Part shown: piece by piece, positions 3,147-41,115 of the stretch
How positions within the stretch are numbered: the first letter of the stretch is position 1
How the letters are laid out: every line of letters begins with the position of its first letter
DNA from: Candidatus Krumholzibacteriia bacterium
Lineage (GTDB): Bacteria > Krumholzibacteriota > Krumholzibacteriia > LZORAL124-64-63
Assembly: GCA_041390065.1 (NCBI GenBank)
Contig: JAWKQQ010000006.1
Location: 194 to 64,193, forward strand
Length of the DNA stretch: 64,000 nt
Reading direction: 5' to 3'
Position numbers and translations under genes: made by a program
Notes under the pieces: generated by a model
What the model was told of the DNA's origin: nothing
Seen by the model: only the letters and a program-made list of their open reading frames with translations
The model's database searches: none

Positions 3147-3245
3147 TGGCGGGAACGTGTGGGAATCGAACCCACCTCGGACGGTATGACGCGCCCGACA
3201 GAGGGATTTGAAGTCCCCGGCCGTCACCAGACGACACTCGCTCCC
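3147..3245 (-). tRNA. selC: tRNA-Sec (anticodon TCA)
   Basis: Minus-strand sequence GGGAGCGAGT-GTCGTC-TGGT-GACGGC-C-GGGGA-CTTCAAA-TCCCT-...-GTGGG-TTCGATT-CCCAC-A-CGTTCCC-G-CCA. It has a 6-bp D-stem with a 4-nt D-loop, a UCA anticodon in a canonical 7-nt loop, a long variable arm (7-bp stem TCGGGCG/CGTCCGA), acceptor plus T stems summing to 13 bp, discriminator G and an encoded CCA. Confidence 0.8.
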
Positions 3246-31907: not shown

Positions 31908-34900
31908 TCAGCGCATGATCACCAGCCGTTGCATGTCGCTGCGCACGCGGCCCAGCGGGCCGTCCAGCTCCACGCGGTAGAGGTAGGTGCCGTTGGCGAG
32001 GCGGTCGCGCTCGCGGTCGACACCGGCCCAGGATACCACCTCCCGGCCGTTGCCGCCCAGCGTGAACGGTACCTCGGCGACCGAGCGGCCGCTCACCGTC
32101 CAGACGCGCACCACGCCGGTGCCGCTGAGCACGTTGGTGCCGAACACGAAGCGGGTCTCGCCGCGCATCGGGTTGGGGAAGTTCACCAGACCGGTGACCC
32201 CGCCGTCGGCCGGCTCGATGGGGCTCGTCTCCAACGACACGTAGGTCTCGAAGCCGTCGATCAACAGGCGCACGCCGCGGTTGGCCTTGGCCGCCGGGGC
32301 GGTCGCCGTGAACGAGGCCTCGAGGTGGTCGCTGTCGAGCACCGACCAGGTGATCGCCGACAGCTCCAGGTGATCGCCCTGCAGCTCCACCGTGGTCGCC
32401 TCGTCGAGCCAGGCGGCCGTGGTGACGGCCACCGAGAAATCGACCGGCACCCCGGGCTGGAACACGTTGCTCTCCGGGTCCACCTCGGTGCCGTCGGCCG
32501 TGAAGGTGGCGGTCCACTCGTGGGCCACCGAGAGGGTGAACGACGGATGGGGATCGGTGTCCAGGCGGTCGGACGCGTCGTAGACGCCGACGGTGATGTC
32601 GTGCGGGAACGGACGCACCGGCAGCGTGATCACGTAGTCCATGATCTGCGTGCGGCCGTCGGGGTAGAAGGGCGTCGCCTCCACCGTGCTCGCCGTCAGG
32701 TCGTTGCCGGCCGAATCGCGAACCACGAGGCGGTCGATGCCGGCCTCGTCGCGGGCCTGCAGGTTCACGACGCGCCGATTGCTCCCGTCGAGCGCCACGA
32801 GGGCGGTCTGGGCTTCGAGCGGACCGCCGCCCACGAGCGCGGCCTCGACCTCGGGCGGGCCGGCGTCGAGCATCAGCAGCGGATCGCCGAGGACCGAGTA
32901 CTGGTAGACCATCTCCCGCACGGTCGAGCTCTGGGAGATGCCGAGCATGTTCTGGCCGGACTTCCACATCAGCTCGCCGAGCATCCAGCGGGTGCCGGTG
33001 TCCCGGCCATCGACCGTCACCCGGGGCGGCGAGATGGCCAGGACGTCGATGAAGACCTCGCTGAACGTCTTGTTGGTGCTCAGGAACTCGTAGCCGCTGC
33101 TCGCGTAGACGGCGACCGCGCCGCCCTCGATCAGGAACAGGAGCTTCTCGCCCAGGCCCGGCTCGGTGTTGCCGTTGGGACCGGCGACATTCTGGATGAA
33201 GTCGCCGAGGTGGCAGCCCATGCCGCAGAACAACCAGGGACGACCCACATTGGTGATGCGGTCGAGGTCGAAGCGGTAGTTGTTGATCCGGGAATCGAGC
33301 AGCCAGTTCTCGTGCGCCATCACGTAATGGTTGGCGTGCCCCTGATAGTGGGCCAGGGTGGCTCCGGCGTTGAGCGCATTGATGAGGCTCGTGGTCGCCC
33401 CGCTCTCCTCGCAGAAGTTCCGCGCCTCCTCGAGGCCGACGACCATGTCGATGCTCGGATGCAGGGGCGTCATGAACGGCCGCAGCATCACCGTGTCGAC
33501 CACGAGGGACACCATGCCGGCGTTGTTGGCCCAGCGGTCGGCCAGCACCCGGTTCTCGCTCTGCTCGAAGGCCAGCTCCGAGCCGTGGTACTCGATGGTG
33601 AAGCCACCGGCGTCGAGGGTGCCGCTGCTCCAGGCGTCGTCGCTCAGGAAGATGCCCCGGCGGCGCCAGGCCTGGCCGTCGCCGGCCTCCACCTGCTGGA
33701 TCTTGCCGAGGACCCGCGCGAGGTCGGCCGGCGAGTCGCACGGGATGCGTCCGATGTAGAGCGACGGCACGCCGGTGATGTTGTTGCCGCCCGGGAAATT
33801 GGTCTCGTTGCCGGCCGGCGGGTAGCCGAACCACATGTCCGAGGCCAGCACCTCCGGCGGCAACCCCTGCCCCACGTCCTGCACGTGGAAATGCGTGGGC
33901 ACCCAGTCGCGCGACCATTGCCGTCCGTCCGACGCCACGCCGAGCTCCCGCGGGTTCTCGTTCGCGCCGCCGAGCAGCACCAGCGCCCAGCTGCCCCAGC
34001 CGGGACTCGCGAGCGCGTGGTTGACCAGCCGCTTGATGGCCCACGGGTTCTTGAGGCCGCCCGTGTACCAGTCGTACAGCGCCTGGGGCTCGACCACGTG
34101 GATGGTGAGGTCGGGGTCGCGCGCGCGCCGGTACTGGATCCAGGCCTCGGCCTGCTCCCGGAACTCCGGATGGCAGACCACCAGCACGTCGGCGCCGTCC
34201 TCGGCCAGCTGGGTGGGCGGCGTGGCGTCGGTCTGCAGGGACGCCTGGTTGTAGTCGACGTCGGAGACGCCGTTGCTGAACATGCGGGTCGCCGCATAGA
34301 AGCGCCGCTGTCCCGCCGACTGATCGATCTGCAGGGAGAGCGTGAGGCTCTCGCCGACGGTCACCAGATTGGCGGCCGTGAGGTCGACGAAGCGGGGGTT
34401 GCGGGGATCGGTGATCTCGATGAGTCCGAGCTCGTCGAGCGGGAAGCCGTCGATCTCGAGGTTGCCGGTCAGCACGTCGGGGTCGCCGCCGGGAAAGCGC
34501 AGGCGGCCGAACGGCGCGGAATACAGCGCCCGGTAGTCGATCTCCACCCAGTCCAGGAACGAGAACATGCGCAGGGAGGCGTTCTCACGCCGGACGCGCA
34601 CCGAGATGTTGCCCGCCGTGAGCGCGTCGGCGGGAATGGCGTCGGAGTAGACGCGGTCGAGCTGGTTGCCGGGCAACTCGTAGTCGTCGAGCCGGGCGAA
34701 CACCGCGTCGCCCTGCACCAGCTCGATGGCCATGATCTTGGGCGAGCTGGAGAAGTTCGCCAGGCCGGCCCTCAGCACCGCCGTGGTCTGGCCCGGGACC
34801 GGCGCCCAGAAATTCAGGGGCACCACCGCGTTCTGCGACAGCACCGAGTTGTAGCAGTAGCGGTCGGTGTTCACCGAGGTGACGTTCTCCCGGTAGGCCA

Positions 34901-36236
34901 CGGCCTCGTCGAAGCGATCGATGCGCCGGTACGAATCCAGCGGCGTTCCGGTCGACGCCGGCAACGTCTCGGGATTCATCCGCGCCCAGCTCTCGCCCGG
35001 CTCCGGGTCCGCCAGCTGCAGCCAGTAGATGTTGAACTCGTTGTTCAGCTCCTGGGGATCCGCCGCGCCCTCGAGGTCGCGCACGACCCCGTCGATCTCG
35101 CGGGAGTAGCCGACGTCATCGGCCGGACGCAGGCCCCAGAACAGGAACAGGTCGTCGTCCGCGAACGCGTCGCCCTCGCCCACCATGTGGATGGGCACCT
35201 CCACCTCCGCGTACGGGCGCGCCTGATCGTCGGACGGGTCGTCGTAGTCGGCGAGGTACTGACGCTGGTAGAGGCGGATCTGGGACTCCTGCAGGGTCAC
35301 GTCGCCGGGCACCAGACCGAGCGCCACCAGCTGGCTGTAGCGCACGCGCACCAGCTGGGTCCGGCCCACGGGCAACCGCACCTCGGGATAACCGAGCGGC
35401 GTTCCCTTCGTCACGCCGCGGGCCTTGCCACCGGGCAGGATCCCGCGGAACGCGGCCTCCGTCGGCAGGCTGGTGAGCAGGTCGCCGTTCAGGAAGCTCC
35501 CGCTGAACCGCTCGTCGCCGCGGTTGCCGACGCGCTGCAGGACGCCGGCGGGCAGGGCCTTGTCGGCCGTCGGGTCGTTCACGAACCGGATGCGCCAGCG
35601 GCCGCTCGCGAGCGCCCGCACGGCCCGGCCCTCCCCGTCGGCCTGCACCGGCAGCAGCGTCACGGACACCGTCCGGCGGCCGCGCCACCACGAGACCTCG
35701 CCCAGCCGCACGGCCGGGCCGGAGGTCGCAACGCGGTCGGGGTTGCGGTAATCCTCGAGCACGGACCTCGGAACCCGTTCGGTCGGCAACGGAACGCCGG
35801 CGCCGGGCACCCACGGCTGTTCCCAACCCTCGCCGGTCTCCGGATCGACCACCATGGTCGCCACCGGCTCGACCGCCAACCAGCGCCCGTCCAGCGACCG
35901 CCACTCCTCGCTCAGCACCTCGAGCTGGGGCCGGGTGCCGGGCGGCACGAGCAGCGACAGGCTGCGCCGCGGCAGGCGCACCTGCGCGGGGCTCGCCGTG
36001 TTCACGAAGCCGGGCAACTGGGCCTCCCAGGCAACCTCGCCGGCCCGTCCGGATAGGCCGCGCTGCCAGCCGGGCGCGTCGAGCCGCAACGAGAACTCCA
36101 CGGCGTCCCGCGAACTCGACTCCAGTTGCGGCAGATTCCCGGCGTGGACCATGAGCGGCAGGACGAGCGCGGCCACGAGCCAGACCGCCCTCCGGACGGC
36201 GCAGCGCTCGCGCCGCGCGAACAGGATGGTGGACAT
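31908..36236 (-). CDS. Giant secreted gingipain-like (peptidase C25 family) protein with FlgD-Ig/T9SS-type C-terminal domain
   Basis: 1442 aa with signal AVWLVAALVLPLMVHAG. The central region has a C25-like His/Cys dyad context (LAHYQGHANH ... PWLFCGMGCHLGDF). The C-terminus reads LVNFPNPMRGETRFVF...NGTYLYRVELDG...RLVIMR. Confidence 0.7.
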   Translation of the reverse strand: MSTILFARRERCAVRRAVWLVAALVLPLMVHAGNLPQLESSSRDAVEFSLRLDAPGWQRGLSGRAGEVAWEAQLPGFVNTASPAQVRLPRRSLSLLVPPGTRPQLEVLSEEWRSLDGRWLAVEPVATMVVDPETGEGWEQPWVPGAGVPLPTERVPRSVLEDYRNPDRVATSGPAVRLGEVSWWRGRRTVSVTLLPVQADGEGRAVRALASGRWRIRFVNDPTADKALPAGVLQRVGNRGDERFSGSFLNGDLLTSLPTEAAFRGILPGGKARGVTKGTPLGYPEVRLPVGRTQLVRVRYSQLVALGLVPGDVTLQESQIRLYQRQYLADYDDPSDDQARPYAEVEVPIHMVGEGDAFADDDLFLFWGLRPADDVGYSREIDGVVRDLEGAADPQELNNEFNIYWLQLADPEPGESWARMNPETLPASTGTPLDSYRRIDRFDEAVAYRENVTSVNTDRYCYNSVLSQNAVVPLNFWAPVPGQTTAVLRAGLANFSSSPKIMAIELVQGDAVFARLDDYELPGNQLDRVYSDAIPADALTAGNISVRVRRENASLRMFSFLDWVEIDYRALYSAPFGRLRFPGGDPDVLTGNLEIDGFPLDELGLIEITDPRNPRFVDLTAANLVTVGESLTLSLQIDQSAGQRRFYAATRMFSNGVSDVDYNQASLQTDATPPTQLAEDGADVLVVCHPEFREQAEAWIQYRRARDPDLTIHVVEPQALYDWYTGGLKNPWAIKRLVNHALASPGWGSWALVLLGGANENPRELGVASDGRQWSRDWVPTHFHVQDVGQGLPPEVLASDMWFGYPPAGNETNFPGGNNITGVPSLYIGRIPCDSPADLARVLGKIQQVEAGDGQAWRRRGIFLSDDAWSSGTLDAGGFTIEYHGSELAFEQSENRVLADRWANNAGMVSLVVDTVMLRPFMTPLHPSIDMVVGLEEARNFCEESGATTSLINALNAGATLAHYQGHANHYVMAHENWLLDSRINNYRFDLDRITNVGRPWLFCGMGCHLGDFIQNVAGPNGNTEPGLGEKLLFLIEGGAVAVYASSGYEFLSTNKTFSEVFIDVLAISPPRVTVDGRDTGTRWMLGELMWKSGQNMLGISQSSTVREMVYQYSVLGDPLLMLDAGPPEVEAALVGGGPLEAQTALVALDGSNRRVVNLQARDEAGIDRLVVRDSAGNDLTASTVEATPFYPDGRTQIMDYVITLPVRPFPHDITVGVYDASDRLDTDPHPSFTLSVAHEWTATFTADGTEVDPESNVFQPGVPVDFSVAVTTAAWLDEATTVELQGDHLELSAITWSVLDSDHLEASFTATAPAAKANRGVRLLIDGFETYVSLETSPIEPADGGVTGLVNFPNPMRGETRFVFGTNVLSGTGVVRVWTVSGRSVAEVPFTLGGNGREVVSWAGVDRERDRLANGTYLYRVELDGPLGRVRSDMQRLVIMR

Positions 36237-36334: not shown

Positions 36335-36370
36335 ACGGCAGCGGGGTGGGCCATCGCCCACCCCGCTGCC
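36331..36370 (-). terminator. Terminator hairpin after paralog A
   Basis: Perfect 15-bp stem GGCAGCGGGGTGGGC-GATG-GCCCACCCCGCTGCC followed by GTTTGA on the minus strand. Confidence 0.6.
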
Positions 36371-36392: not shown

Positions 36393-36971
36393 TCAGTCGA
36401 ACAGGGCCTTGACCTCGGTCAGGCTGTGGGCTTCGGTCGCCGTCACGCCGCCGCTGTTGAGGGTGGCCACCACGCCACCGAGCGGATTGCCGCTGGTGAG
36501 GAAGCAGGCGATCAGGTCGTCCGGATTGGCGCCGTTGGCGATGCCAGGGCCGGCGGGGCTGAAGCTCGAGGGCGTGGAACCACCCATCGAGATGTCGACC
36601 GCCAGACCGGCGGTGTAGAGCAACTGAACGGTGCACAGCACCGCGGTGTTGTCGCCCGCGACCGGCAGCGGAGTCTGGAAGCCGGCGATGTGGTTGGTGG
36701 GGCTGCCGAAGTTGGTCCAGCCGTTGGCGCCGGTCGCGCTCAGCACGAATACGTTCACGTCCGAGAAGATCAGGGAGCACTCGTAGGCGCCCACCGAACC
36801 GACCGGGGCATCGAGCAGCACGATGTAGGCGTTGAACGGACTGAACCCGGCGTCGAAGTTGGTGTCGTTGTCACCGAAACTCGAGTTGCTGAAGAACACA
36901 CCCATACCGGGCTGCGCGAAGGCGGCGCCGGCCATCAGGGCCACGATGACGAGAGCTAGCAGTTTCTTCAT
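36393..36971 (-). CDS. Small secreted protein, unrecognised family, paralog A
   Basis: ATG at comp(36969-36971) after CAGGAGAGG. MKKLLALVIVALMAGAAFAQ signal. Shared blocks MGVFF, FNAYIVL, GAYE, GWTNFGSPTNHIAGFQTPLP, PSSF, NPDD, ATLNSGG and tail EAHSLTEVKALFD. Confidence 0.8.
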   Translation of the reverse strand: MKKLLALVIVALMAGAAFAQPGMGVFFSNSSFGDNDTNFDAGFSPFNAYIVLLDAPVGSVGAYECSLIFSDVNVFVLSATGANGWTNFGSPTNHIAGFQTPLPVAGDNTAVLCTVQLLYTAGLAVDISMGGSTPSSFSPAGPGIANGANPDDLIACFLTSGNPLGGVVATLNSGGVTATEAHSLTEVKALFD

Positions 36972-37149
36972 GATCCTCTCCTGAAGCAACGCAGGTCCTC
37001 AATCCTTGCCGGGGGAACTCCCTCCCTGCCACCCGCCGCCCGCATCGGCGGGGTGACATCCGGCGCATCCGGGGCTCGGTACGTCCGTGTAGAGCCGTCC
37101 CGTGGCCAAGCTAACCGGATTCCGGCCCGGAGACCGGTTTCACGCGATG

Positions 37150-37178
37150 AATATCCCCGCAAAGTTCGGTCCTGTCAA
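37150..37178 (-). promoter_or_regulatory. Sigma70-like promoter for paralog A
   Basis: Minus strand: TTGACA (comp 37173-37178), N17, GATATT (comp 37150-37155). Implies a ~170-nt structured leader. Confidence 0.45.
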
Positions 37179-37392
37179 GCGCGCAAACCGGATGGTCCAG
37201 CACGCTCCATCTCGGGGAATCACGGCGCCTCTCACGCCCCGTGGATGCGGGCCGCGGCCGTGCGAACTGCATGCCGGAGGGAGTCCGCACGCGCGGAACA
37301 CGGCCTCGGATCGCGCCCCGACGCGGGCACGACCGCCCGCCGGATCGCACACGCCGCAGACGGGGCGACGGCGGCCGGCGGGGATGCGAAGA

Positions 37393-37418
37393 GGCCGCCT
37401 CCCCGGAGGGAGGCGGCC
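37393..37418 (-). terminator. Hairpin after paralog B
   Basis: GGCCGCCTCCC-TCCG-GGGAGGCGGCC on the minus strand, about 25 nt after the stop. The following U-tract is weak (CTCTTCGC). Confidence 0.45.
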
Positions 37419-37440
37419 CGTGACGCGGGATCGCGAGCGG

Positions 37441-38085
37441 TCAGTTGGCGAAGAGAGACTTCACGCCGCGCCAGCTCTGAGCCTCGGTGGCCACGGGGAA
37501 CTCGATGCCCTGGCCGTTGAGGGTGGCGACCAGGCCGCCCATGTCCGGCCCGCTCGTGTAGGTGCAGAGGATGATGTCGTCGACGTTCAGGCCGTTGGCG
37601 ATGGCCGGGCCCGCGCCATTGACGCTGCTGGGGCTCGACGCACCCATGCGGATCTCGACGGTGCTGGAGCTCGTGTTGAGCAGACGCATCTGCGACAGGA
37701 CCGCGGCGACGCCGTAGGTGGGCACGGCGAACTGGAATCCGAACAGGTGATTGGTGTAGTCGCCGAAGTTCGTGCCGCCGTAGGAGAAGCCGTCGGGGTA
37801 GGTGTAGACGCCGCTGTCCCAGGTGGCGTCCGGGCCGGCCAGGCCGAGCACGAACACGCCGGGATCGGAGATCTCCAGGCTGCACTCGTAGGCCGCCACG
37901 GAGATCACGGTCGGGTTGAGCAGCACGATGTACATCTCGAACTCGGTGCCGGGCTCGACGTTCAGGTTGGTGGTGCCGGGGATGAAGCTGGCATCGTCGA
38001 AGAAGACGCCCATGCTGTTCTCGAGCTGAGCGAAGGCGGTTCCGGCGAGCAGAACGACCAGCGCGACCATGATCAAGGTCCTCAT
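37441..38085 (-). CDS. Small secreted protein, unrecognised family, paralog B (longest, most divergent)
   Basis: ATG at comp(38083-38085). MRTLIMVALVVLLAGTAFAQ signal. Shares MGVFF, FEMYIVL, AAYECSL, TNFGDYTNHLFGFQFAVP, PSSV, ATLNGQG and tail EAQSWRGVKSLFAN. Carries an extra DATWDSGVYTYPDGFSYGG insertion. Confidence 0.8.
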   Translation of the reverse strand: MRTLIMVALVVLLAGTAFAQLENSMGVFFDDASFIPGTTNLNVEPGTEFEMYIVLLNPTVISVAAYECSLEISDPGVFVLGLAGPDATWDSGVYTYPDGFSYGGTNFGDYTNHLFGFQFAVPTYGVAAVLSQMRLLNTSSSTVEIRMGASSPSSVNGAGPAIANGLNVDDIILCTYTSGPDMGGLVATLNGQGIEFPVATEAQSWRGVKSLFAN

Positions 38086-38293
38086 TGTTCTCGTCTCCCT
38101 GGTGCGGCGCAGGTCTGGACACTGTTCAACCCGGCCGATCATCGTCTGCACAGCCGCCTGCACCGGCTGTGCGGACCGACGGTGCGAGACGACCGTCGAC
38201 GACCAGGTTCCGAAGCTTGATAACCATGCATCGAAAATGATGTTTGGTCAACCCTATGTACGCGGATGCTGCCAAAAGGTTGCGTAGATGCTG

Positions 38294-38346
38294 AAAAAAA
38301 CAACGTCTGGTGATGACGCGAACGCCCCGGGCAGGGCCCGGGGCGT
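38294..38346 (-). terminator. Tandem-hairpin terminator after paralog C
   Basis: Minus strand: ACGCCCCGGGC-CCT-GCCCGGGGCGT, then CGTC-ATCACCA-GACG, followed by TTGTTTTTTT. Confidence 0.6.
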
Positions 38347-38379
38347 CGCACTGTCGTGTCAGCTGGTCGCAGGAACGAC

Positions 38380-38976
38380 CTAGTTGAACAGGGCCTTCAC
38401 GGCGGAGAGGCTGTGCGCCTCGGCGGCCACGCCACCGGGGAACGTGATGCCGTCGCCGTTCAGGGTGGCCACGAGGCCGCCCATGTCCGGGCCGCTGGTG
38501 TAGTTGCAGACGTAGAGGATGTCGGGGTTGCTACCGTCGGCCAGGGCCGGGCCGGCGCCGCCCACGCTGCTCGGGCTCGAGGGGCCCATGCGGACTTCGA
38601 CCAGGTCGTTGGCGGTGTAGAGCATCTGGATCGTCGACATGACCGCGTAGCCAGCGGAGCTCGGCAGCGGGGTCTGGAAGCCGGCGAGGTGGTTGGTGTT
38701 GCTGCCGAAGTTGGTCCAGCCGTTGGGGCCGGAGACGCTCAGCAGGAACACGGCGGGGTTGCTGATCTCGATGCCGACCTCGTAGGCGCCGATGGTGAAC
38801 ATCGTGGTCTGGATCACGGCGATGTAGGCGTTGAACGGAGCGGCGCCGTTGTCGAGGTTGGTGTTGGCCTCGGTGAGGTCGCTGTCGGAGAAGAACATGC
38901 CCATGCTGTTGTCCAGCTGAGCGAAGGCGGAACCGGCCATCAGAGCCACGAGGGCAAGCGTTAGCAGGGTCTTCAT
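38380..38976 (-). CDS. Small secreted protein, unrecognised family, paralog C
   Basis: MKTLLTLALVALMAGSAFAQ signal. Shares MGMFF, FNAYIAV, GAYE, GWTNFGSNTNHLAGFQTPLP, PSSV, NPD, ATLNGDG and tail EAHSLSAVKALFN. Confidence 0.85.
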   Translation of the reverse strand: MKTLLTLALVALMAGSAFAQLDNSMGMFFSDSDLTEANTNLDNGAAPFNAYIAVIQTTMFTIGAYEVGIEISNPAVFLLSVSGPNGWTNFGSNTNHLAGFQTPLPSSAGYAVMSTIQMLYTANDLVEVRMGPSSPSSVGGAGPALADGSNPDILYVCNYTSGPDMGGLVATLNGDGITFPGGVAAEAHSLSAVKALFN

Positions 38977-39113
38977 GGATTGAACTCCCGGTGCAATGCA
39001 GGTGGGGAAATCAGCGCCGGGGAACTGGTTTCCCCAACAGCCGGCGGCCTGCGTCTACCGGCTAGCGCGACAGTGAAACTGCGTGTGGCCCCGTGGCCAC
39101 TTGATCTTGAACG

Positions 39114-39142
39114 ATTCTACAAGTGATGGGCGAAGATGTCAA
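39114..39142 (-). promoter_or_regulatory. Sigma70-like promoter for paralog C
   Basis: Minus strand: TTGACA (comp 39137-39142), N17, TAGAAT (comp 39114-39119), in a locally AT-richer spacer. Implies a ~130-nt leader. Confidence 0.55.
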
Positions 39143-39192
39143 TAATCGATCCACCACCCACGAGAATCTTTTACATTGTCAAACGAGTGTAC

Positions 39193-39232
39193 AAAACCAA
39201 TAAAAACCGCCCCGGGGATCGCCCCGGGGCGG
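39193..39232 (-). terminator. Rho-independent terminator after paralog D
   Basis: Perfect 11-bp stem CCGCCCCGGGG-CGAT-CCCCGGGGCGG followed by TTTTTATTGGTTTTG on the minus strand. Confidence 0.75.
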
Positions 39233-39256
39233 TACATGCGATCAGCGCTCCCGATC

Positions 39257-39862
39257 TCAGTCGAAGAGGGCCTTGACGTCGCTGAGGCTGTGGGCCTCGG
39301 TCGCCACCACGCCGTCGCCGTTGATGGTGGCCACGTAGCCGCCGTCGCTGGTGAGCGGGCAAGCGATCAGGTTGTCCGGGTTGGCGCCGTCGGCGATGCC
39401 CGGGGTCGGGGGGTTGAAGCTCGAGGGGGTCGCGGCCCCGAGGTTGATGAACACGGTCGGGACGCCGGTGTACAGCATCTGGATCGTGCAGAGCACCGCG
39501 CCATCGGCGCAGGGCAGCGGGGTCTGGAAGCCGGCCAGGTGGTTGGACGGGGTGCCGAAGTTGGTCCAGCCGTTGGGGCCGGTGACGGCCAGCAGGAACG
39601 GGGCGCCGCCGTCGAAGGTGACGCTGGTCTCGTAGGCCGCGACGCTGGCGACCGTCGGGTTGACCAGGACGATGTAGGCGTTGAACGGGGCGAAGGCGTT
39701 CACGAAGTTGGTGTTGGGGTTCATGCCGCCATCAGCGATGGACTCGTTGATCACACCCAGGTCGTTCGTGAAGAACATACCGATCATGTTGTCTTCGCTC
39801 GTCTGAGCGAGGGCGCCGGCAGCCATGAGGGCCACCAGGGCCAGAACTAGCAATTTCTTCAT
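39257..39862 (-). CDS. Small secreted protein, unrecognised family, paralog D
   Basis: ATG at comp(39860-39862) after CAGGAGAGC. MKKLLVLALVALMAAGALAQ signal. Shares GMFF, FNAYIVL, AAYE, GWTNFGTPSNHLAGFQTPLP, PSSF, NPDN, ATINGDG and tail EAHSLSDVKALFD. The 241-aa ORF extension upstream is rejected. Confidence 0.8.
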   Translation of the reverse strand: MKKLLVLALVALMAAGALAQTSEDNMIGMFFTNDLGVINESIADGGMNPNTNFVNAFAPFNAYIVLVNPTVASVAAYETSVTFDGGAPFLLAVTGPNGWTNFGTPSNHLAGFQTPLPCADGAVLCTIQMLYTGVPTVFINLGAATPSSFNPPTPGIADGANPDNLIACPLTSDGGYVATINGDGVVATEAHSLSDVKALFD

Positions 39863-39916
39863 TGTTGCTCTCCTGAAGCAGCGCAGGTCACGGTTGCGGA
39901 GCCGTCGGGAAATCCC

Positions 39917-39949
39917 TGCTGCCCCGCCGCCTGCATCGGCGGGGCAGCA
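39917..39949 (-). promoter_or_regulatory. 13-bp-stem hairpin between the dockerin gene and paralog D (terminator and/or first element of the paralog leader motif)
   Basis: Minus strand: TGCTGCCCCGCCG-ATGCAGG-CGGCGGGGCAGCA, 34 nt after the dockerin-gene stop. Related hairpins sit upstream of paralogs A, B and C. Confidence 0.5.
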
Positions 39950-39982: not shown

Positions 39983-40597
39983 CTAGTTGCAGCTGGTGCC
40001 GATGCCCTGGGTGAAACGCGCCACGTCGGACAGGTTGATGATGCCGTCGTTGTTGAAGTCGGCATCATACGTGTAGGTGGCGAGCGCCTGCGTGAAGGTC
40101 GCGACGTCCGACAGGTTCACGATGAGGTCACCGTTGATGTCGGCACTGTTGAACGTGAGGGACAGGCCCGCACCGGCCAGAGGAGCGCCGGCCACGATGA
40201 CCCGCGTGGTCTCGCCAGCCGAGTTGCCACCGGCAGCCAACGGGTTGGACCAGGTGGTCATGCCGTCGATGTCGGTGGACGCGTCGGCAGCGGTGCCGCC
40301 GTCACAGAACGTGAGGCCGCCGAGGGACGTCTCGAGCCACAGATCCTCGAACGGATAGCCGAAGATCGGGTCGCCCGTGGTGTCGATCAGGGTCAGGGTG
40401 ATGGTGGCGTCAACCGTGCCACCGACACCGAAGGCCTGGTCGAGGGCCACGCCGGCCCCGTTGGGAAGGTTGAAGACACTGGCGCCGTTGGCAGCAGGGT
40501 CGATGGAAGCAGTCGACGTGTTGAGGTCGGGAACGCCGGCCCAAGCAATGGAAGCCAGGCTCACGACCAGCGCGCCGAGCAAGAACCTACGAAGCAT
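39983..40597 (-). CDS. Secreted protein with C-terminal dockerin-type (EF-hand-like) repeat pair
   Basis: GGAGGTG upstream of the ATG at comp(40595-40597). Signal MLRRFLLGALVVSLASIAWAG. C-terminus DINGDLIVNLSDVATFTQAL...DFNNDGIINLSDVARFTQGIG is two dockerin-like calcium-binding segments. The N-terminal ~130-aa domain is unassigned. Confidence 0.75.
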   Translation of the reverse strand: MLRRFLLGALVVSLASIAWAGVPDLNTSTASIDPAANGASVFNLPNGAGVALDQAFGVGGTVDATITLTLIDTTGDPIFGYPFEDLWLETSLGGLTFCDGGTAADASTDIDGMTTWSNPLAAGGNSAGETTRVIVAGAPLAGAGLSLTFNSADINGDLIVNLSDVATFTQALATYTYDADFNNDGIINLSDVARFTQGIGTSCN

Positions 40598-40871: not shown

Positions 40872-40948
40872 TGGTGGGCGAAACAGGGTTCGAACCTGTG
40901 GCCTCCTGCTTGTAAGGCAGGCGCTCTGACCAGCTGAGCTATTCGCCC
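40872..40948 (-). tRNA. tRNA-Val (anticodon TAC)
   Basis: 77 nt: GGGCGAA-TA-GCTC-AGCTGGTCA-GAGC-G-CCTGC-CTTACAA-GCAGG-...-ACAGGTTCGAACCCTGT-TTCGCCC-A-CCA. Confidence 0.9.
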
Positions 40949-41115
40949 ACTCCTCGGCGGAAGAGCCGCCATACGAAGAGCGGCAACACCACGCAGTACC
41001 CCGCCACCAGCAGCACCGGTCCGAGGGACAGGCGGTTGTCGGCCAGCAGGATGTAGCCGACCACGATGGTCAGCAGGCCGACGAGCAGGAGCCAGACGTT
41101 GCGCAGCAGGGGCAT
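40939..41115 (-). CDS. Small two-TM membrane protein (DUF3098-like, tentative)
   Basis: MPLLRNVWLLLVGLLTIVVGYILLADNRLSLGPVLLVAGYCVVLPLFVWRLFRR has two hydrophobic helices and a short size consistent with DUF3098. Its last 10 nt overlap the tRNA-Val 5' end. Confidence 0.4.
   Translation of the reverse strand: MPLLRNVWLLLVGLLTIVVGYILLADNRLSLGPVLLVAGYCVVLPLFVWRLFRRGVGE

Follow-up and report, generated by a model that had tools for sequence, protein, structure and literature searches.

A tandem array of secreted cohesin-like modules between a dockerin gene and a PorU-like peptidase gene suggests a surface docking system in Krumholzibacteriia

The window analysed here, a 64,000-nucleotide (nt) stretch of a Candidatus Krumholzibacteriia genome (positions 194 to 64,193 of contig JAWKQQ010000006.1), carries an array of four paralogous minus-strand genes, A to D, between a gene for a dockerin-bearing protein and a gene for a C25 cysteine peptidase (Table 1). 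We show that the four products belong to a family of secreted modules with a cohesin-like fold, a label that covers the predicted fold and not proven homology. The association of array, dockerin and sortase-like protease suggests a previously undescribed cell-surface docking system. Our preferred reading, to which we give somewhat less than an even chance, is that A–D are single-module, cohesin-like surface anchors for the neighbouring X module–dockerin (X-Doc) protein, retained through a short C-terminal tail, and that they are a functional analogue of the sortase-anchored ScaE. A–D are Sec-exported, single-module proteins with a predicted cohesin-like β-sandwich and, judging from this fold and from recurrent gene adjacency, would bind the dockerin of the X-Doc protein and perhaps also dockerin paralogues encoded elsewhere in the genome. 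The two partners would thus make up a non-cellulosomal cohesin–dockerin pair at the cell envelope. The tail would retain or sort the module at the cell surface and, more speculatively, might be recognized or processed by the adjacent PorU-like C25 sortase.

All four open reading frames (ORFs) lie exactly where the first-pass annotation of the window had placed them, and its description of the proteins held. They align over their full length, with a mean column identity of 65% and pairwise identities of 49–63%; they begin with Sec-type signal peptides that end in AFAQ or ALAQ, share all the motif blocks that had been listed and close with the common tail EA[HQ]S[LW]..VK[AS]LF[DN]. In B, the expansion of the GWTNFG block amounts to 14 inserted residues, in the loop that is conserved best. 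The duplicates had been judged old, and comparison with another genome (locus L004) bears this out: by position, D, C, B and A correspond to copies 1, 2, 3 and 5 there, so the paralogues predate the split of the two genomes. B and C are 64% and 66% identical to their L004 orthologues, which is above their identity to any paralogue in the window. G+C content is about 70% across the window and 64% over the array, and the window matches a metagenome-assembled genome (MAG) of Candidatus Krumholzibacteriia with locus tags R3D98_02760–02780.

The family had been described as unrecognized, and A–D are indeed without a match in Pfam, NCBIfam or the Protein Data Bank (PDB) sequences. An hmmscan of the four proteins against Pfam-A at E ≤ 1 returned zero families, Cohesin included, and a four-sequence profile found no cohesin among the PDB sequences. 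At least 170 family clusters are present in a 90%-identity collection, and a 50%-identity library holds 1,016 family representatives at E ≤ 1e-3, 379 of which reach E ≤ 1e-10; a search with the four-sequence alignment led to 5 loci, and the taxonomic survey over GTDB is thin. Most members stand alone, have 180–220 amino acids (aa) and match the profile over its full length, with the tail. In a minority, which are long multidomain proteins, the family domain lies beside an S8 peptidase, a β-helix or HYDIN/ASH-type immunoglobulin (Ig) repeats. These long homologues terminate in FlgD_ig/Por_Secre_tail C-terminal domains (CTDs; P0122, P0149, P0173, P0186, P0203 and others), which marks the family domain as an extracellular module of type IX secretion system (T9SS)-type cargo. 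One further candidate, the 5655-aa P0182 with 23 matched stretches, turned out to be a low-complexity protein from a flatworm, and we discarded it as a false positive. Separately, a metagenomic ORF (L042, ORF end ~994+) encodes 326 aa comprising two tandem family-like modules and then the same tail, evidence that a single chain can contain duplicated modules in the manner of a mini-scaffoldin.

The cohesin-like assignment comes from structure prediction. For protein C, an AlphaFold2 (AF2) model based on an alignment of 78 sequences has a predicted local distance difference test score (pLDDT) of 88.2 and a predicted template modelling score (pTM) of 0.79; it is an all-β sandwich over residues 21–178, followed by the tail (residues 179–198) at low confidence. 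About 46 of the top 50 Foldseek matches of this model in the PDB are cohesins, at probability 1.00, E values of 1e-4 to 3e-3, target-normalized template modelling (TM) scores of 0.5–0.66 and sequence identities of 8–16%. The top entries include 1g1k, 5nrm, 2vn5, 2vo8, 2jh2, 5m0y, 1qzn and 2xdh, and the matched cohesins span types I, II and III as well as non-cellulosomal kinds, with those of the Clostridium perfringens toxin complex and of Archaeoglobus among them. The predicted model is thus a β-sandwich of the cohesin size range, about 140–170 residues, that superposes on solved cohesin modules. At the sequence level, A–D have no significant match to the Pfam cohesin profile (PF00963). Profile–profile alignment (hhalign) of the 78-sequence family against a CipA cohesin profile gave no signal, the latter being shallow (Neff 1.7), since a search with CipA cohesin 7 had yielded 11 close relatives. 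Against a cohesin that carries the same tail as A–D (locus L046), with the tails removed, hhalign aligned 32 columns (β2–β4) at P = 0.056, compared with P = 0.32 for a reversed control. Because the sequence tests do not confirm homology, we use cohesin-like as a description of the family's fold and do not count the family as a proven cohesin.

The conserved loop that is expanded in B invites a different explanation, in which A–D are secreted binders of carbohydrates or other ligands, similar to carbohydrate-binding modules (CBMs), with the invariant GPNGWTNFG.NTNH loop as a sugar or metal site. Conservation of that loop is high, polar and aromatic residues abound in it, and the large insertion in B falls exactly there, as would be expected for specificity variation; the domain is attached to S8 peptidases and β-helix proteins in the manner of a CBM, and the cell-wall enzymes YceG, SpoIID and GH3 are among the neighbours of the locus. 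We consider this quite improbable, given that the top Foldseek ranks are occupied by cohesins and not by CBM families and that no CBM model in Pfam matches A–D.

The gene immediately upstream of the array encodes the candidate ligand. The annotation of a dockerin-repeat protein at this position was confirmed: the protein scores 21 bits against Pfam Dockerin_1 (E 3.9e-4), just under the gathering score of 22.9, and several of its orthologues carry PF00404, pass the Dockerin_1 cutoff or bear the name dockerin type I domain-containing protein. It has two tandem repeats (DINGDLIVNLSD and DFNNDGIINLSD) that are about 22 residues long and contain an F-hand Ca2+ loop together with a helix, in which DINGDLIVNLSDVATFTQAL and DFNNDGIINLSDVARFTQGI are kept in 36 homologues; the repeats DINGDLIVNLSDVATFTQ and DFNNDGIINLSDVARFTQ are canonical, nearly identical and internally symmetric. 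Its AF2 model (pLDDT 93.7) consists of an Ig-like domain and then two helices, and these helices superpose on the type II dockerin 2y3n_B with a TM score of 0.73, a root mean square deviation of 1.8 Å and 37% identity (Foldseek). Over the full length, the Foldseek matches are X-Doc dyads from cohesin complexes (4fl4_L, 3kcp_A, 5g5d_B and 5m0y_B). From the repeats, the two-helix model and the dyad matches, we conclude that the neighbour is a free-standing X-Doc unit. It belongs to a uniform and distinct family of at least 267 clusters, and its mature size, like that of the array proteins, is about 170–180 residues. In the 36 homologues, Cys98 in the Ig-like module and Cys203, two residues from the C terminus, are invariant, which suggests a disulfide that clamps the dockerin onto the X module.

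The array and the X-Doc gene are linked well beyond this genome, and the gene order around them is kept across Krumholzibacteria. In every main locus examined (L001–L006, L008, L009, L011, L014 and L017/L018), the order is isoleucyl-tRNA synthetase (IleRS) … YceG, a 58-aa membrane ORF, X-Doc, two to five family copies, C25, SpoIID and GH3. This order holds where the family copies are only 30–34% identical, with X-Doc there at 56–58% and C25 at 47–53%; no component of the locus evolves faster than the family. As synteny alone may reflect inheritance, the non-syntenic cases are the informative ones. In the MAG Glo_17 (L012), a second X-Doc paralogue, 43% identical, lies directly upstream of a family copy among unrelated neighbours and with no C25 gene, and an X-Doc–family pairing is found again at L107. 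In a distant organism of lower G+C content (L069), two tandem family-like ORFs with tails lie upstream of a C25-like gene whose product is 26% identical. Co-occurrence of the family with dockerin and C25 genes, for which a survey of relatives had been proposed, is therefore recurrent, also outside synteny.

Several observations weigh against the docking proposal. Cohesin homology lacks sequence-level evidence (Pfam Cohesin, hhalign), the TM scores are moderate and β-sandwiches match one another easily. The 64-kb window contains no dockerin-tagged enzymes. Both families also occur solo, as family copies at L007 and L010 and as X-Doc paralogues at L013, L015 and L016; the stoichiometry is uneven, with one dockerin gene per two to five family genes; and the dockerin protein is 56–71% conserved against 30–66% for the family, with no obvious co-evolution. 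A–D could also be periplasmic, because tail-bearing proteins without a T9SS CTD have no evident outer-membrane route. The earlier suggestion that the array proteins are cohesin-like partners of the neighbouring dockerin is supported computationally by the predicted fold, the X-Doc dyad, the adjacency (L012 and L107) and the layout of the L046 protein.

The L046 protein leads to the C-terminal tail. It is a true Pfam cohesin (PF00963; 29.6 bits, gathering score 24.1) composed of a signal peptide, a module and the tail. Among stand-alone family members, nearly all close with ATExxS[LW][ST]xVK[AS]LF[DNEQ]-COOH, whereas this ending is missing from the long homologues that bear CTDs; A–D themselves have no CTD of the Por_Secre_tail/FlgD_ig type, the mark of T9SS cargo. 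Within the window the tail is limited to the four family genes. Elsewhere it occurs on an unrelated Cys-rich ORF (L015, 522–1214), and in a metagenome scan for its coding sequence 40 of 120 hits lay in frame at ORF ends, giving the extended consensus PVxxExx[ST]W[ST]x[VI]KALF[RQDEN]-COOH. The carriers are diverse proteins with signal peptides, some of them of the lipoprotein type, and include CHRD and DUF6923/DUF4394 proteins, unannotated bodies and the two-module family protein (L023, L029, L036, L044, L046, L049, L055, L057, L058, L077, L078, L087, L124, L130, L136 and others). No Pfam or NCBIfam model covers the tail, and a literature search for the motif string returned noise only. These data show that the tail is a portable C-terminal element that occupies the position of the T9SS CTD in related proteins and is mutually exclusive with it; portability and CTD position are together the signature of a sorting or anchoring signal.

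The gene downstream of the array encodes a candidate enzyme for such a signal. The 1442-aa product matches Pfam Peptidase_C25 over the full profile (E 3e-43), and QGH[AG]N and GMGCHLGDF are invariant across six C25 orthologues; going by gingipain motifs, these would be the catalytic His and Cys. The protein scores 125 bits against the NCBIfam model for the T9SS sortase PorU (NF033707), below the equivalog cutoff of 420, and 59 bits against the PorU2 N-terminal model (cutoff 450). At full length, its sole match among PDB sequences is PorU (6za2), over the CTD (E 1e-5), and its C terminus has a weak FlgD_ig match; a phmmer search with the C25 domain alone found nothing among PDB sequences. It thus combines a C25 domain containing a candidate His/Cys dyad with a retained CTD-like C terminus, as in PorU. 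The first-pass annotation was right about a large C25 protease with a CTD-like end, but the likeness is to PorU (NCBIfam, 6za2) and not to gingipains.

A PorU-like neighbour raises the alternative that A–D are mainly substrates of a C25 transpeptidase, which would cleave the tail and attach the module covalently to a surface glycolipid, the dockerin being incidental. Adjacency of family and C25 genes is kept from 64% down to 26% C25 identity, the enzyme resembles PorU and has His and Cys motifs that are invariant, and the tail is both portable and, as the C terminus of one domain family, mutually exclusive with the T9SS CTD. The KALF[R] end of the tail also loosely resembles the last CTD strand of the long homologues (RKIMLLK, KLSLVR), although this is an idea only. 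Known PorU substrates, however, need a folded CTD of 70–100 residues to be exported and recognized (PMC4560394, PMC8545088), whereas the tail has about 17 residues and matches no CTD model. Moreover, most metagenomic tail genes lie on short contigs with no C25 gene nearby, the sole case found with one being L069, and the C25 protein could be a housekeeping PorU in a conserved housekeeping neighbourhood (IleRS…YceG…SpoIID–GH3). On balance we regard this alternative as distinctly unlikely. An extension of the docking proposal, to which we likewise give only a small chance, is that the tail, in the form PVxxExx[ST][WL][ST]x[VI]KALF[RDNEQ]-COOH, is a novel type of short sorting signal, free of a transmembrane segment or folded CTD, that a PorU-like C25 transpeptidase recognizes, so that the locus would be a complete diderm counterpart of the ScaE system. 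The old cohesin-like specificity variants would then be the receptors, X-Doc the ligand and the leader RNA described below the control. Many secreted proteins, of Krumholzibacteria and of other uncultured bacteria alike, would use the tail.

The adjacent C25-family protease and the invariant C terminus had also prompted the hypothesis that A–D build a type V (FimA/Mfa1-like) pilus, in which the protease would mature the subunits and donor-strand exchange through the C-terminal strand would join them. This hypothesis failed on several grounds and is highly improbable. Type V pilins are lipoproteins, whereas A–D and nearly all of the 78 homologues have A-x-A|Q sites of the signal peptidase I type and no lipobox Cys at +1. 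In size, A–D reach half of FimA/Mfa1; the model has one β-sandwich and not a two-domain FimA-like fold, and no FimA/Mfa1 or other pilin fold is found in the top 50 Foldseek PDB matches. The C25 protein, finally, is PorU-like and not a gingipain-type maturation protease. What survives, and has gained strength, is the notion of the invariant C terminus as a C25-linked sorting tag, in view of its portability, its exclusivity with T9SS CTDs and the distant C25 adjacency at L069; the donor-strand pilin context does not.

Predicted expression signals set the four genes apart from one another. As reported at first pass, a GC-rich hairpin follows each of A, B, C and D, and near-consensus σ70-like sites of the TTGACA-N17 type lie upstream of A and C; over 5.3 kb, we found 4 promoter-like sites against 0.4 expected. 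We conclude that A–D are old, positionally conserved variants that are separately transcribed by predicted signals. The terminator hairpin after A reaches directly up to, and in part into, the −35 element (TTGACC) of the C25 gene's promoter-like site, an arrangement that suggests coupling of the array with the C25 gene by read-through or occlusion.

Individual promoters and terminators also enter into the explanation that A–D are the abundant building blocks of a layer, sheath or fibril at the surface. These would self-assemble, the cohesin-like fold being a mere scaffold, and the tail would dock, for instance, onto the next subunit or onto the Ig-like domain of X-Doc, with no dockerin recognition. 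A strong predicted promoter and a terminator for each gene, together with a copy number amplified to between two and five, are what a highly expressed protein would have, and the fastest evolution in the locus is typical of exposed surface components. The low AF2 confidence of the tail in the monomer is as expected for a segment that folds on a partner, and the X module resembles filamin-type Ig domains, which bind peptides by strand addition. We nevertheless hold this explanation to be unlikely. No pilin, S-layer or other self-assembling protein is among the top Foldseek results, and the presence of the tail on many unrelated, non-repetitive proteins points to general sorting or anchoring and not to a family-specific polymerization strand. 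The recurrent, specific pairing with a dockerin gene would also be left unexplained.

Every family gene is preceded by a conserved 5′ leader, and the hairpin between the dockerin gene and D is part of it. The hairpin keeps its AUGCAGG loop while the stem covaries, 6 of its 7 pairs having double compensatory changes, and none of 500 shuffles attained the observed covariation score; 93.6% of the cells are paired, compared with 34–55% in slid registers. About 40 nt beyond the hairpin lies ACCUGCG, in which CCUG can pair with the CAGG of the Shine–Dalgarno (SD) sequence and CCUGC is complementary to GCAGG in the hairpin loop. The composite motif is confined to positions upstream of family genes: the window has four such sites (mean of 0.5 in block shuffles), and L001, L004, L005, L011 and L017 have it too, as does the relocated solo copy in L007. 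No Rfam family matches the intergenic leaders; tRNA-Val is the single real match in the region. Going by these sequence patterns, the leader looks like a dedicated translational control element and is a candidate new cis-regulatory RNA.

Table 1. Features of the array and its flanks (positions in the window)
Feature	Position	Strand	Description
C25 cysteine peptidase	31908-36236	minus	1442 aa; PorU-like; CTD-like C terminus
Promoter-like site of C25 gene	36306-36334	minus	σ70-like
GC hairpin after A	about 36337-36370	minus	
Copy A	36393-36971	minus	ORF, 192 aa; adjoins C25 gene; identical to NCBI R3D98_02760
Tail of A	36396-36440	minus	TEAHSLTEVKALFD; conserved C-terminal end
5′ leader of A	36969-37043	minus	Equivalent of D leader
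Promoter of A	37150-37178	minus	10/12 matches
GC hairpin after B	about 37393-37418	minus	
Copy B	37441-38085	minus	ORF, 214 aa; 14-residue insertion in conserved GPNGWTNFG loop
Tail of B	about 37444-37491	minus	Equivalent of A tail
5′ leader of B	38083-38161	minus	Equivalent of D leader
GC hairpin after C	about 38322-38346	minus	
Copy C	38380-38976	minus	ORF, 198 aa; protein used for AF2 modelling
Tail of C	about 38383-38430	minus	Equivalent of A tail
5′ leader of C	38974-39052	minus	Equivalent of D leader
Promoter of C	39114-39142	minus	TTGACA-17-TAGAAT, 11/12 matches
Intrinsic terminator after D	39206-39233	minus	12-bp GC stem and T run
Copy D	39257-39862	minus	ORF, 201 aa; cohesin-like module and C-terminal tail; matched by family profile
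Tail of D	about 39260-39304	minus	Equivalent of A tail
5′ leader of D	39860-39934	minus	Hairpin with loop AUGCAGG, then ACCUGCG anti-SD, then SD
X-Doc protein	39983-40597	minus	204 aa; signal peptide, Ig-like (filamin/invasin-like) X module, two-repeat dockerin

The 58-aa ORF (MPLLRNVWLLLVGLLTIVVGYILLADNRLSLGPVLLVAGYCVVLPLFVWRLFRRGVGE; about 40939-41115, minus strand; 7814-7990 in L001) lies between YceG and X-Doc in every locus and encodes two predicted hydrophobic helices. In the window its 3′ end overlaps the tRNA-Val gene (40872-40948) by about 10 nt, and because of this overlap its conserved GVGE end may reflect the tRNA sequence. Elsewhere in the window, a tRNA-SeC gene with anticodon TCA (3147-3245, minus strand) implies the use of selenocysteine in this Krumholzibacteriia genome.

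By analogy, the closest functional counterpart of the proposed system would be ScaE of Ruminococcus flavefaciens, a sortase-anchored single cohesin that captures X-Doc dyads (ScaB, CttA; PMC5301203). The two share a single cohesin-type module with a short C-terminal motif, an X-Doc dyad as partner, a sortase-type enzyme and clustered genes. ScaE, however, is a Pfam-recognizable type III cohesin of a monoderm that uses LPXTG and a classical sortase, whereas the array module has no detectable sequence similarity to cohesins, its host is a diderm of the FCB group, its tail has no transmembrane or LPXTG features and the candidate enzyme is a PorU-like C25 protein. In addition, the X-Doc protein of the window carries no scaffoldin or CBM, and there are two to five paralogous anchors. 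The closest phylogenetic precedent would be the complex of the Cloacimonadota (Ca. Stygibacter), for which cohesin–dockerin interaction with anchoring through T9SS CTDs has been inferred (PMC8542988). There, too, cohesin and dockerin modules, surface attachment of the T9SS CTD type and C25 peptidases are found in an uncultured bacterium of the FCB superphylum (PMC8542988), but the Stygibacter system comprises dockerin-tagged enzymes and a giant scaffoldin that carries tandem Pfam cohesins, whereas here the modules are single, free-standing and of a new sequence family, and the X-Doc protein stands free as well. A literature search turned up no paper that connects Krumholzibacteria to dockerins.

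The T9SS of Porphyromonas gingivalis, in which PorU is the sortase (PMC4560394, PMC8545088), resembles the locus in the PorU-related C25 neighbour, in the multidomain homologues that are classical CTD cargo and in a conserved extreme C terminus that is essential to the design (PMC4560394, PMC8545088, PMC5562754). It differs in that A–D have the short tail in place of a folded CTD, the C25 protein falls far below the PorU equivalog cutoff, and no genes for the anionic lipopolysaccharide (A-LPS) pathway, PorV or PorZ were seen next to the C25 gene. Nearest in layout is the L046 cohesin, with a signal peptide, one module of about 135 aa and PVxxExxSWSxVKALFR-COOH. The architecture is identical, although the Cohesin hidden Markov model recognizes this protein and not the window family, and the two bodies align weakly. 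Cohesin–dockerin docking is already known; what is uncatalogued here is the widespread C-terminal tail and the leader RNA.

If A–D do bind the dockerin, cohesin–dockerin chemistry would reach a family of about 1,000 clusters (at 50% identity) that is invisible to current profile libraries, and docking of the cohesin type would be undercounted in uncultured diderm phyla. The tail, which secreted proteins such as a cohesin and those with CHRD domains share, could be a sorting or anchoring signal for the cell surface that has so far gone undescribed, and its exclusivity with the CTD, together with the deeply conserved PorU-like linkage, makes the sorting hypothesis directly testable. Both partners are small, so recombinant binding tests would be simple even though the organism is uncultured, and new orthogonal cohesin–dockerin pairs would be useful for protein-assembly engineering.

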